48,456 bases of DNA from a virus (lineage: Duplodnaviria; Heunggongvirae; Uroviricota; Caudoviricetes): the IMG/VR virus record IMGVR_UViG_2850808358_000014; one strand, given 5' to 3'. Under the pieces are notes generated by a model. The model was given only the letters and a program-made list of their open reading frames with translations. It was not told the origin of the DNA and did not search any database. The position numbers and the translations under genes were made by a program. Shown here one piece after another: positions 8,686-46,830 of the stretch (within the stretch, counting starts at the first letter, position 1; each line of letters begins with the position of its first letter).

Positions 8686-8887
8686 ATGACCGAATCCAGC
8701 GATTACGAATCCGTCCAGGTCTTTATCGGCGTTGATGTCGGTAAAGATACGCATCACGCTGTTGCCATTAATCGTTCAGGTAAACGCCTGTTCGATAAAG
8801 CATTACCCAACGACGAAAACAAACTCAGGTCGCTAATATCTGACCTGAAACAACATGGTCAGATACTTCTGGTTGTTGATCAGCCAG
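8686..8887 (+). pseudogene. IS110-family transposase, N-terminal fragment, interrupted by the Mu right end
   Basis: N-terminus MTESSDYESVQVFIGVDVGKDTHHAV is typical of IS110-family DEDD transposases; the frame continues exactly into 45831-46830 (...LLVVDQP|ATIGALP...). Confidence 0.85.
8883..8887. repeat. GCCAG target-site duplication, copy 1
   Basis: Identical 5 bp directly flank both Mu termini. Confidence 0.8.
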
Positions 8888-8960
8888 TGAAGCGGCGCAC
8901 GAAAAACGCGAAAGCGTTTCACGATAAATGCGAAAACTTTAGCTTTCGCGCTTCAAATGA
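8888..8960. other. Mu right end attR (MuA binding sites R1-R3)
   Basis: Terminal sequence matches the Mu right end as recalled, between the terminus and the mom stop. Confidence 0.85.
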
Positions 8961-9002
8961 AACAGCAGTATTAATTACTGCTTTTTATTCATTACATGGG
9001 GA

Positions 9003-9728
9003 TCACTTAGGGTATGGCTGAACCCTGAATAGCTTGGTATTTAGCCGCTTCCTTGCTCGCTTGTTCAGGAATCTGATGTAGCGATACTGATTAAATTTGT
9101 GCACCACGGCACGCTCTTTATTAGCCCGTAAATACACGCCTCGTTGTCCACCTCGCTTAATCGCGTTCATCGTTATCTCGTGATACCACTCACCATCCAG
9201 CTCGTAGAACGTGCTTTCATGGCTGCCAATAAAATCAAAATTCGACGCCTGATACACAACGCCTGCGCGTCCGCAGCGTTCGTCAGCAAAGGACTGAACC
9301 CACTCCACTGACGGATACAGTAATCTGATAACTTTCAGCGCGTAGCTGATGGCCCGTGATTCAGAGTTGCGGGGCATGTCGTCGTGTAGCCACATGCGAT
9401 TCAACTCCATATAGCCCCGGTTATCCGTTTCAAGCACGACACGACGACCTGAGTTGGGGTTAAGGGCATATCCCCACTGGAGAACGCCAACCAGATCGCG
9501 TCCGCTGAATACTCCCAGGTGGAGGTAAGAGTTATTCACAAAACGGCGGGAATAGTGCTTTGTCTGAATAATTGTGCGGGCCAGCCAGCAGGATATGGTT
9601 TCAACGCGCAGCTCCTTTGAACCATAGCCAACAATCTGGCCTTCATACTCAATAACGCACGGTTTCGTCAGAATGCGTGATTTTTTCTCTTTTCCCACAA
9701 TGTTTCTCCGTGGGATGCTCGCAGGCAT
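9003..9728 (-). CDS. mom: DNA modification protein Mom (ORF as tracked; true start probably internal, overlapping com)
   Basis: Last gene before the right end, overlapping com, as in Mu. Confidence 0.85.
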
Positions 9729-9837
9729 TCAGCATTATGATGTGACGTTTGCAACGCGGACACCTGATTTCAATGTGATCAAAGGAATCCGCCTTAAATA
9801 ACAGTTTGTTGCAGTTTTTACAGCGAATTGATTTCAT
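9649..9837 (-). CDS. com: Com, zinc-finger translational activator of mom
   Basis: 62 aa, [16 protein letters not shown]...CPRCKRH matches Mu Com. Confidence 0.9.
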
Positions 9838-9839
9838 CT

Positions 9840-9960
9840 CACCTCCTTTGCATCAATTCGCCACTATCTTAAAAAACATCGTGGGTTGAGTGTGGTTATT
9901 GGGGCATAATCGATCTATATTACCGATCGATTTGATTGATTCGATCGTCGTTTTCTATAT
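9840..9960 (-). promoter_or_regulatory. mom promoter/regulatory region with three GATC (Dam) sites overlapping the 3' end of gin
   Basis: Three GATC within about 45 bp upstream of com; position matches the known methylation-dependent mom control region. Confidence 0.55.
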
Positions 9961-10513
9961 GTGTTCGTTTGGCGGGGTGTTTTTTATACAGCGTTGACAG
10001 GGCCACATCGTAGATCAATGCGACCTGCTTGCGGGGGATTCCTTGTGCTAATAAACGCCCGGCCTGCTCCCATTCCGCTTTGGTTAGTTTAGGTGGTCGC
10101 CCACCGATACGGCCTTTATTTCTGGCAGCAGCAAGTCCAGCCATCGTTCTCTCGATGATTAGTTCTCGTTCCATCTCAGCCAGGGCACCCATAACGTGGA
10201 AGAAAAAACGCCCCATTGGAGATGACGTATCAATACTGTCAGTAAGACTGCGAAAATTAATCCCTCGCTCTCGTAATTCCCCTACGAGAGAAATCAAATG
10301 TTTCATGCTTCGCCCGAGGCGATCCAGTTTCCAGACAACCAGTGTGTCACCTTTTTGAAGACGCTTTAAAGCGCGTTTTAATCCAGGTCTGTCTGTCCTT
10401 GTTCCGCTTAATTTATCTTCAAATATTTGTTCACATCCTGCACAAACAAGAGCGTTTCGTTGCAGGTCTGTATTCTGGTCATTTGTTGATACCCTTACAT
10501 AGCCAATCAGCAC
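9920..10513 (-). CDS. gin: Gin serine DNA invertase
   Basis: 197 aa, MLIGYVRVSTNDQNTDLQRNAL... matches the Gin/Hin family with catalytic Ser near the N-terminus. Confidence 0.95.
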   Translation of the reverse strand: MLIGYVRVSTNDQNTDLQRNALVCAGCEQIFEDKLSGTRTDRPGLKRALKRLQKGDTLVVWKLDRLGRSMKHLISLVGELRERGINFRSLTDSIDTSSPMGRFFFHVMGALAEMERELIIERTMAGLAAARNKGRIGGRPPKLTKAEWEQAGRLLAQGIPRKQVALIYDVALSTLYKKHPAKRTHIENDDRINQIDR

Positions 10514-44494: not shown

Positions 44495-44714
44495 GATGTT
44501 TTCTCCATATACCGAGAAGGCCAAATCTGGGCTGGTTCCATATCCAAATATCTAGCAATGATTGCTTCGTATCGTGGTATATGGCAGCGAAATACGTTAC
44601 GCATAGTGTCAGGCTTTAAGCCTGCCTCTCTGGATAATTGAGATAGTGTCTTCCCTTCATACGAACAGCAGCCTTTATCTGCTCTGCGTGCCAGTCTTGG
44701 TTTTTTGCTGACAT
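44488..44714 (-). pseudogene. ner: Ner-like early regulator (D108-type), frameshifted
   Basis: MSAKNQDWHAEQIKAAVRMKG then a frame slip near 44654; corrected it reads ...KTLSQLSREAGLKPDTMRNVFRCH... and ends overlapping the A start. Confidence 0.75.
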
Positions 44715-44883
44715 TCTGCGATCCTTACTCTCTTAACGTTTTCGGTAACTGATACCGGCTACCGCTATCGGGAAAAACGATAGCGCAGAAAAATGCGCAT
44801 TTCAAGAGCTGTGCGCATTTTTATTTTAACAAATGCAAATCAAAGCATTCTGTAAAATTCTTTATATAACAGAGAGATTGAAC
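44715..44883. promoter_or_regulatory. operator/promoter region between ner and c
   Basis: Divergent intergenic region, the position of operators O1-O3 and promoters Pe/Pc in Mu. Confidence 0.65.
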
Positions 44884-45492
44884 ATGACAGGCGAAAAAGA
44901 AAGCAAAAATGCAGAGCGCATTTTTATGCCCTCGGAAATAATGCGTTTCAAGGAACGCCTTGAAGAGGCAATGAATGGAGAATCAAGCCGGGCGTTTGCA
45001 GCTAAGTGCGGACTTTCTGATGGGGTTATCAGAAACTACCTGTCTGGCAAGACATACCCGTCTTTAGATCGATTAGCACAAATAGCCTACGCAACAGGGC
45101 GTCCAATAGAGTGGTTTATCCAAAGTCAGAGCATGCCAATGGTTGAGCATAAAAATGCTCAAGAGAATAAAAATCCTCAACCTGACCGCAGCACATTGAA
45201 AACTAAACTGATCGCAATTGTCGAATTGTTAGAGGACAAGGAACTGCATTCTGCGATTGAGTTGTTCAGAAAGAAAGGATTTGAAGCTCTTATGCCTGAG
45301 ATTTTTTCTTCCGATGATTCCATCCAGGCTGATTTGCAAGGTATTTCGCAGCAAACCTTACAAACAGCCAAAATGCTTGAATCATTACCAACAGATACCC
45401 GTAAAGAGATTTTGTCAAAGTATGGTATTTATGAACAGGAAGGTCTTGTAGCTCCTTCACAAGAACCACAAGATGTAAAAAAAGCCGTATAA
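44884..45492 (+). CDS. c: repressor c (non-Mu N-terminal DNA-binding region, Mu-like C-terminus)
   Basis: C-terminus ...ILSKYGIYEQEGLVAPSQEPQDVKKAV is close to Mu Repc; start taken at the second ATG, with an SD. Confidence 0.85.
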   Translation: MTGEKESKNAERIFMPSEIMRFKERLEEAMNGESSRAFAAKCGLSDGVIRNYLSGKTYPSLDRLAQIAYATGRPIEWFIQSQSMPMVEHKNAQENKNPQPDRSTLKTKLIAIVELLEDKELHSAIELFRKKGFEALMPEIFSSDDSIQADLQGISQQTLQTAKMLESLPTDTRKEILSKYGIYEQEGLVAPSQEPQDVKKAV

Positions 45493-45649
45493 CAACCATG
45501 AACCAGCTAAAACATACTTCACCTCACATAATCACACATGTAACATACCTAAACGGCATGAGCTGATTTGTGATATGAGTCATTTGGTTACAGCCTGGTT
45601 GTTATCGGTTTTGAACGTTTTTTGAAGCTGTTATTGAAATGATTTGCAG

Positions 45650-45830
45650 TGTTTTTGTTTTTCGTATTTTCAATGAAACAAAAGCAATTTTTTACTATCT
45701 TTCGCGTTTCATTGATTAACGACTAAAATTTGCGCTACAGGCTTGCAAGCCCCACCAAATCTAATCCCATCAGATCCCGAATAATCCAATGTCCTCCCGG
45801 TTTTTTTCGTACTTCAAGTGAATCAATACA
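45650..45830. other. Mu left end attL (MuA binding sites L1-L3)
   Basis: Reverse complement matches the Mu left-end sequence TGTATTGATTCACTTGAAGTACGAAAAAAACCGGGAGGACATTGG... as recalled. Confidence 0.85.
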
Positions 45831-45835
45831 GCCAG
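45831..45835. repeat. GCCAG target-site duplication, copy 2
   Basis: Identical to 8883-8887. Confidence 0.8.
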
Positions 45836-46830
45836 CTACCATCGGTGCGTTACCTGTCGCCGTTGCCCGCTCAGAAGGAGTCCTTGTCGGATACCTCCCT
45901 GGACTGGCCATGCGCCGCATAGCCGACTTACACGCCGGTGAAGCTAAAACTGATGCTCGTGACGCTGCCATCATTGCCGAAGCTGCCCGTACCCTGCCTC
46001 ACGCGCTACGCACGCTGAAACTGGCTGACGAGCAAATCGCCGAACTCTCCATGCTCTGCGGCTTCGATGATGATCTTGCCGCACAGACAACGCAGGCCAG
46101 CAACCGTATCCGCGGCCTTCTGACCCAGATACATCCGGCACTGGAGCGCGTTCTCGGTCCGAGACTTGAGCACCCGGCGGTACTCGATCTTCTCCAGCGA
46201 TATCCCTCACCAGAAAAACTCGCTTCGCTGGGTGAGAAGAAGCTGGCAGCCCAGCTCTGCAAACTTGCGCCTCGTCTGGGTAAACGCCTTGCAGCAGACA
46301 TAGCTCAGGCACTGGCCGAACAAACCGTCGTCGTTCCCGGCACGAATGCCGCTGCCGTAGTACTGCCACGTCTGGCACTCCAGCTCATCACGCTGCGTAA
46401 GCAAAGAGACGAGGTGGCGCTTGAGGTAGAACAGCGAGTTCTTGCTCACCCTCTTTACCCGGTCCTGACCAGTATGCCCGGAGTCGGTGTCAGGACCGCA
46501 GCCAGACTCCTCACCGAGGTCGCCTGCCGCGCCTTCGCCTCTGCCGCACATCTCGCTGCTTATGCTGGCCTTGCGCCGGTAACTCGGCGATCCGGCTCGT
46601 CAATACGCGGTGAGCATCTCTCGCGACGGGGTAATAAAGCTCTCAAACGGGCGTTGTTCCTGTTGGCCTTCGCCGCGCTCAGGGATCCGCTCTCCAGGGC
46701 TTACTACACCCGCAAAATGAGTCAGGGAAAACGACACAATCAGGCGCTTATCGCCCTGGCGAGACGACGCTGCGACGTTCTGTTCGCCATGATGCGCGAC
46801 GGGACTTTTTATACCCCGCAGGGGTCATAA
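45831..46830 (+). pseudogene. IS110-family transposase, C-terminal fragment (continues 8686-8887)
   Basis: In frame with the N-terminal fragment once Mu and one TSD copy are removed; about 60% GC. Confidence 0.85.

Follow-up and report, generated by a model that had tools for sequence, protein, structure and literature searches.

How a transposable phage, an insertion sequence (IS) and a phage satellite came to lie one inside another, and in which order they arrived, is the question raised by a stretch of 48,456 nucleotides (nt), called here the window, which is filed as IMG/VR virus record IMGVR_UViG_2850808358_000014 and comes from CP026877.1 of assembly GCA_002950035.1. An earlier note, made from the letters alone, had described a three-level nesting of a Mu-like prophage in an IS110-family transposase gene in a satellite-like element. 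All three levels were recovered: the innermost element has the synteny of Mu, the interrupted gene encodes IS110 domains, and the flanks belong to a phage-inducible chromosomal island (PICI) of the EcCICFT073 type. Three mechanistically distinct insertions are very probably stacked at this single locus, with Mu inside ISEc20 and ISEc20 inside the PICI (Table 1). Positions 8686 and 46830, between which the nesting had been placed, are the ends of the split transposase open reading frame (ORF) but not those of the IS, which spans 8455-46861. There is also a further level, as the PICI is itself inserted at tRNA-Pro and an IS4 element adjoins its distal end.

The boundaries of the Mu-like prophage are exact. 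With a slash marking the join, the left junction (8887/8888) reads ...GTTGTTGATCAGCCAG/TGAAGCGGCGCACGAAAAACGCG..., in longer context GATCAGCCAG/TGAAGCGGCGCACGAAAAACGCG, and the right junction (45830/45831) reads ...CACTTCAAGTGAATCAATACA/GCCAGCTACCATCGG..., in longer context GAATCAATACA/GCCAGCTACCATC. The termini fall where the earlier note had put them and align to the last base (36717) and to position 1 of phage Mu AF083977, respectively; they have the form 5'-TG...CA-3' with MuA end-binding sequences, as Muvirus requires. The identical GCCAG pentamers predicted at the two ends are present, a coincidence expected for two 5-mers at about 1/1,024, and the identity of the flanks stops at 5 bp, as expected of a target-site duplication (TSD). 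The target consensus of Mu is 5'-CYSRG (PMC7350765), and GCCAG agrees with its central Y-S-R. Deletion of 8888-45835 in silico gives a single ORF of 398 amino acids (aa), where about 400 had been expected, with the predicted junction LLVVDQP/ATIGALP.

The site without Mu, which the earlier note proposed to look for in related genomes, is present in ten sister loci from six records. In each of them ISEc20 is uninterrupted at the identical position and reads GATCAGCCAGCTACC, where GCCAG is present in one copy; the records include CP026845.1, CP119446.1, CP026824.1 and CP026846.1, and the island and the chromosomal locus are the same. For the two sisters that overlap most, by about 9.6 kb, identity to the window minus Mu and one GCCAG is 99.8-99.9%. 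The site without the IS was located by exact protein look-up in CP026836.1, where the same island reads CATAA-C6-ATTTTCAC and the number of C may be under-called. Because the sisters hold both the IS without Mu and the island without the IS, the order of events, PICI followed by ISEc20 followed by Mu, is documented, and Mu is the youngest, strain-specific arrival. The distribution of the junctions is in keeping with this order: in exact look-ups the 73-aa protein encoded across the PICI/IS junction occurs in 47 blocks of the public collection, and the 111-aa ORF fused across the IS/Mu junction occurs in one contig only, the source of the window. No match to the Mu/IS junction was obtained in an exact search of the GTDB species-representative genomes, and a 401-bp junction query had no spanning match among 5,426 complete E. 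coli genomes (RefSeq). The transposition had been called recent on account of its intact TSD; the duplication says little alone, but the Mu-free sister genomes do back the claim.

The element that received Mu is a copy of ISEc20, identified by best matches of >99% nt identity in about 1,200 RefSeq E. coli records. Its limits were set from six copies in unrelated contexts, which gives 1,459 bp without Mu, a non-coding left end of 231 bp and a right end of 31 bp outside the ORF. Over this full length the copy shows 3-8 differences from the ISEc20 copies compared. The restored protein contains DEDD_Tnp_IS110 (PF01548, 1.4e-48, residues 14-168) and Transposase_20 (PF02371, 2.7e-22, residues 277-358), and scores 240 bits against NCBIfam NF033542, 'IS110 family RNA-guided transposase' (cut-off 140). 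Mu entered at codon 67/68 within the DEDD domain, after the motif VVDQP and before KTDARDA, which we take to be equivalent to catalytic positions of IS621. The insertion would in this way cut the RuvC-like DEDD domain into an N-terminal portion, with the first two catalytic positions, and the rest, and the recombinase is presumably lost. The ends of ISEc20 and the bridge-RNA region are untouched by Mu. What sets this copy apart from other ISEc20 elements is the 36.9 kb of phage DNA lodged in it, together with three private substitutions.

For most of its length the prophage has 96-99.8% nt identity to Mu, D108 and SfMu, of which SfMu is especially close. With 54 SfMu proteins as tblastn queries, all but gp11 and gp14 were found, in Mu order from repressor/c/ner/A/B to gin/com/mom. 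It shares with these members of Muvirus the terminal sequences, the 5-bp TSD, the gene order and the invertible G segment, and differs from them in a divergent immunity region, in an extra cassette of about 610 bp and in the absence of SfMu gp11 and gp14. The immunity region (about 44288-45360) comprises the repressor, ner, the operators and the first approximately 75 aa of MuA. The repressor and Ner have about 40% aa identity to SfMu c and Ner, and the first approximately 75 residues of MuA differ as well. No close match to 44288-45360 was found in the phage collection, the Mu match at this end being limited to the outer approximately 470 bp. These comparisons point to a heteroimmune variant of Mu.

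A PICI of the EcCICFT073 type, about 11-12 kb in size, would have come first in the history proposed for the locus, its tyrosine integrase placing it between yejM and yejO, within the 3' end of tRNA-Pro(ggg). ISEc20, with a DEDD/serine recombinase and a bridge RNA of its own from the left end, would then have entered a C-run in the 3'-terminal part of a small gene of the island, leaving the PICI genes on the strand opposite to its own. Finally, Mu would have been inserted into codon 67/68 of the ISEc20 transposase by the nick-join chemistry of MuA, with duplication of GCCAG.

A contrary reading takes the Mu-like element for a decayed, non-functional remnant, the frameshifts being real and the insertion either old or made in trans. 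Ten Mu genes (A, B, gemA, C, F, I, L, the tape-measure gene, N and P) come out of the tblastn comparison with SfMu in two or three frames each, with about 15 apparent frameshifts in all, and the surrounding ISEc20 has three substitutions found in none of the other copies, orthologues included, one of them synonymous (8868) and two non-synonymous (46619, P329L; 46664, S344L). Base-level alignment to close relatives, however, revealed that the frameshifting gaps are all 1-nt deletions in the window, none of them insertions, and that almost all lie in or beside short G or C runs. In Mu they are at 43376, 41830, 37368, 36239, 36024, 35224, 34840, 29270, 27287, 23232, 19813, 18889, 18349 and 17734; MuA and MuB have one each, that of A beside a G-run (43376) and that of B within one (41830). 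The PICI shows the same kind of loss at 6767, 5992 and 3540, with the primase (6767) and the decoration gene (3540) affected, and the primase split at 6767 is intact in the sister genomes with 584 aa. One-directional losses limited to homopolymers are typical of under-calling in assemblies made from long reads only. Because the losses in the window follow this one-directional, homopolymer-restricted pattern, the frameshifts are probably sequencing errors and not decay. Outside the shifts the aa identity is 93-100%, the Mu ends and the TSD are perfect, and the insertion is confined to one assembly among near-identical sisters. A decayed remnant is accordingly regarded as unlikely.

The repeat content of the group invites another explanation, in which the nesting is an assembly artefact produced by a repeat-induced mis-join of Mu from elsewhere with an ISEc20 copy, since both ISEc20 and prophages like Mu are either widespread there or present in several copies and the assembly is error-prone at base level. 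Such a mis-join would not produce exact Mu termini, a perfect 5-bp duplication and an uninterrupted 398-aa ORF, and Mu and the IS share no sequence at either junction; an artefact is hardly credible. Mu might also have been inside the IS before the PICI was entered, a composite ISEc20::Mu of 38.4 kb having been mobilised in trans. The IS ends and the bridge-RNA region are intact, and IS110 recombinases can work in trans with a bridge RNA (PMC11208160). Against this stand the same ten sister loci, in which an IS without Mu occupies the same site of the same island at the same chromosomal locus. Because of them, insertion of Mu in situ is far more parsimonious, and prior assembly of the composite is given next to no probability.

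Stepwise insertion of PICI, ISEc20 and Mu therefore remains the preferred account, and there are points that weigh against it. MuA, MuB and about nine other Mu genes are formally frameshifted in the record, and an intact, viable prophage is what we infer from the comparisons. The systematic 1-nt losses in homopolymers also make the lengths of the C-runs at the junctions, and with them the exact size of the IS core, not fully reliable: the orthologous IS-free site reads 6 C where other PICIs read 8 C.

Table 1. Coordinates of the elements and genes in the window
Feature	Position	Strand	Basis or remark
IS4 element, 3' part	1..1024	+	Transposase ORF 1-1011, terminus 1024; NCBIfam NF033592 IS4-family transposase, 231 bits; Pfam DDE_Tnp_1
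PICI distal attachment (att) core GGCACGAGAG	1048..1057		10-bp copy of tRNA-Pro(ggg) 3' end
PICI distal arm, EcCICFT073-type	1048..8454	-	Pfam Phage_cap_E, SSB, D5_N, Pox_D5, DUF4222
Head-decoration region	about 3380-3680	-	HDPD; frameshifted at 3540
Major capsid protein, lambda-E-like	3701-4756	-	Phage_cap_E
SSB	5200-5610	-	Pfam SSB
D5/P4-type primase	6164-7917	-	D5_N, Pox_D5; split at 6767
DUF4222 gene	7914-8213	-	Pfam DUF4222
77-aa gene	8219-8452	-	ORF
ISEc20 left end	8455..8887	+	Boundary from 6 + 11 other insertion sites
ISEc20 C-run/core	8455-8458	+	Insertion-site comparison
ISEc20 non-coding left end, 227 bp, with predicted bridge RNA	about 8459-8640 (RNA)	+	Fold and covariation
Transposase codons 1-67	8686-8887	+	ORF
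Mu TSD, left copy GCCAG	8883..8887		Junction sequence
Mu-like prophage, 36,943 bp	8888..45830	-	Inverted relative to the window; attR end 8888, attL end 45830
Mu gin/com/mom	9003-10513	within inverted prophage	SfMu comparison
Mu G segment	about 10568-13649	invertible	S/U and S'/U' tail-fibre genes
Cassette small ORF	32744-32938	+	Matches PHROGs of unknown function only
Cassette small ORF	32913-33116	-	Matches PHROGs of unknown function only
Cassette small ORF	33121-33291	-	Matches PHROGs of unknown function only
Mu B	about 41525-42459	within inverted prophage	SfMu comparison
Mu A	about 42498-44524	within inverted prophage	SfMu comparison
Mu repressor	44833-45492	+	Helix-turn-helix ORF
Mu TSD, right copy GCCAG	45831..45835		Junction sequence
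ISEc20 right part	45836..46861	+	Codons 68-398, stop 46828-46830, 31-bp right end ...AATAGGGGCACCCCCC
73-aa gene	46844-47065	-	Last 3 codons now IS-derived
PICI proximal arm	46862..48456	-	Rfam, NCBIfam, sister loci
C4 antisense RNA, c4-a1b1 target and isrK matches	47280-47367, 47758-47845, 47435-47484, 47869-47945	- (all)	
YlcI/YnfO gene start	48259-48456	+	NCBIfam

The choice of target by ISEc20 was examined from its other insertions. The sites are C-runs, with few exceptions, and the junctions read ...CCCC/GTTAC on the left and ...GGGGCACCCCCC/ on the right. In related PICIs the empty site reads CACGCATAA-C8-ATTTTCAC (CATAA-C8-ATTTTCAC), and the occupied site consists of 4 C, the IS and 6 C. 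A net duplication of 2 nt would fit an IS110-type core, the size of which is uncertain. At three other loci (L018, L019 and L057) the right junction reads GGGGCA-C-GTTAC... and then continues differently from the left end of the element itself; their target looks like a left-end mimic with only one C, which does not fit a simple 2-nt CC core.

IS110 elements of this subgroup are guided by a bridge RNA, a structured RNA encoded by the non-coding end of the element (Durrant et al., PMC11208160). According to this model, the 5' arm of a loop repeats the top-strand sequence of the left donor, which is the right end of the IS, and the 3' arm is the complement of the right donor, which is the left end of the IS. 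A scan of the IS left end against Rfam returned no family, whether gathering thresholds or permissive E-values were applied; since Rfam has none for it, the RNA was examined by covariation. Relatives of ISEc20 (80, with 73-99% aa identity, including Burkholderiales and Actinobacteria) were collected and 40 left ends aligned. The RNAalifold consensus has two stem-loop domains, with compensatory changes in 19/50 pairs (39 relatives). The variable base of AUAGGG(G/A), on the 5' side of the second domain, changes together with that of the right end ATAGGG(G/A)CA (47 G/G, 14 A/A and none mixed; 61/63), in agreement with the left-donor-guide rule (PMC11208160), and GUAACG, on the 3' side of the domain, is complementary to the invariant left-end GTTAC. 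The first domain contains CUGCCCCCAG and CCGGGGGGUG, which fit a C-run target; both are invariant across the alignment, so covariation cannot bear on this pairing. A bridge RNA with a donor guide, encoded in the left end of ISEc20, is thereby supported.

ISEc20 resembles the IS110 subgroup with a bridge RNA in the left end (compare IS621) in its domains, long left end, short right end, duplicated core and two-loop RNA. It differs from IS621 in target, oligo-C tracts being used by the ISEc20 family and a repetitive extragenic palindromic (REP) sequence by IS621, and in the guide, which in IS621 covers the core, whereas the loop match of ISEc20 to its right end stops before the final CA+CC. Transposases 73-81% identical to that of ISEc20 (L020-L091) were found in Burkholderiales (Duganella, Paraburkholderia and Cupriavidus) and in Actinobacteria (Microbacterium, Pseudoclavibacter and Cryobacterium), with near-identical bridge-RNA loops and the same oligo-C target. 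A single IS110 lineage thus seems to extend across phyla with its target guide unchanged. In E. coli ESDR8 (L001; NZ_CM169472.1, locus 9686-11155), ISEc20 occupies the homologous C8 site of a different PICI, which has an HK97-type capsid module and a RepA helicase and lies near tqsA/pntB, at another chromosomal locus. It is taken as an independent insertion into the same conserved target.

The sequences on the two sides of the IS are, as the earlier note held, co-oriented parts of one satellite, a single PICI of the EcCICFT073 type. The reference island EcCICFT073 carries capsid gene c1499, decoration gene c1500, AlpA and Pri-Rep (Fillol-Salom et al. 2018, PMC6092414). The island of the window agrees with this type in the tRNA integrase, the Pri-Rep primase, c1499/c1500-like genes, a size of about 11-12 kb and the absence of tail and lysis genes; it differs in that ISEc20 (and Mu) breaks the leftward operon midway and in that one gene of 222 nt is absent. 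The distal arm has 88-94% nt identity to the islands of this type in E. coli AST198 and CFT073 and 99.8% identity to sister genomes; compared with the CFT073 element alone, 68% of the left arm aligns at about 91% nt identity. A P4-type satellite was considered and rejected, as there are no sid/psu/delta-type genes and the capsid genes are lambda-E/D-like, as in EcCICFT073.

Beyond the window, the sister loci show a 68-aa ORF at the alpA position (assigned by position alone), the integrase and tRNA-Pro. The integrase adjoins tRNA-Pro both in these loci and in E. coli AST198, where the homologous island measures 11.7 kb and lies between tRNA-Pro/yejM and yejO. When the tRNA-Pro gene of a sister locus (L096) is compared as its reverse complement, the longest match is the att core GGCACGAGAG. 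At the other end, comparison of the junction with E. coli AST198 shows that the IS4 element interrupts the hairpin of the terminator that follows yejO, 23 bp away from the att core on its outer side, and in the source genome an autotransporter lies beyond IS4 (L104).

ISEc20 entered the PICI 11 nt upstream of the ATG of the next gene, and the upstream 73-aa gene is altered in its last three codons only. The operon that runs on to primase and capsid is interrupted midway by the IS, so that a polar block of it is likely. Most related PICIs have a gene of 222 nt that separates the 77-aa gene from the IS target; it is missing here (window 8444-8454 compared with L008, L009 and L002), and when the joined PICI flanks were searched against E. 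coli genomes only islands with this extra gene at the junction were recovered. The end-points of the deletion lie at a 10-bp direct repeat, ATCACGCATA, derived from the identical starts, ATGCGTGAT, of two neighbouring genes. An adjacent deletion mediated by the IS was considered and rejected, since the end-point lies 15 bp outside the IS, at the ATCACGCATA repeat, and an IS-free sister (L097) also lacks the gene.

Several other features accompany these elements. In the PICI, Rfam gives two full-length matches to C4 antisense RNA (75-79 bits), one for each of two Icd-like ORFs, as well as a c4-a1b1 target match and an isrK match beside them, and the satellite is predicted to carry a duplicated P1/P7-type immI-like (c4-icd) module. 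The sister islands (L097-L103) contain varied insertions of the IS3, IS4, IS66 and IS91 families, often with split or truncated integrases; in sister genomes an IS4 lies within the island, between the 68-aa ORF at the alpA position and ylcI. IS expansion appears to be degrading the satellite in these genomes. In the prophage, the G segment has the orientation opposite to that of the SfMu reference record, and the variable fibre parts are only 87-93% identical. The cassette of about 610 bp (32689-33301) lies between terS and terL; it is not present in Mu, D108 or SfMu and is common to Yersinia phage vB_YpM_Tongde only.

Nested mobile elements are common in the IS-rich genomes of Escherichia and Shigella. 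All three elements described here are of known, well-described kinds, only the particular combination and the heteroimmune Mu variant being new, and no new type of element or mechanism is revealed. The homopolymer errors of the source assembly carry a practical lesson, as they create false pseudogenes. As ISEc20 usually exists in several copies, and as the present one has kept its ends and its bridge-RNA gene, the 38.4-kb ISEc20::Mu could conceivably be mobilised in trans by another copy. Alternatively, the PICI::ISEc20::Mu composite of about 50 kb could be packaged by a PICI helper phage; the chance of either is judged to be small. If true, the former would be a natural IS110 element with a whole phage as its cargo, and the latter would allow a Mu prophage to be transduced without Mu transposition, the composite being about one lambda genome long. 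The locus may serve as a teaching case and as a benchmark for the annotation of nested elements. For the PICI family, it suggests that a conserved gene junction offers ISEc20 an oligo-C target, at which two islands are taken to have been hit independently. At this one site, three mechanisms of mobility, those of a tyrosine integrase, a bridge-RNA-guided recombinase and a DDE nick-join transposase, have acted, and their intermediates persist in sister genomes.

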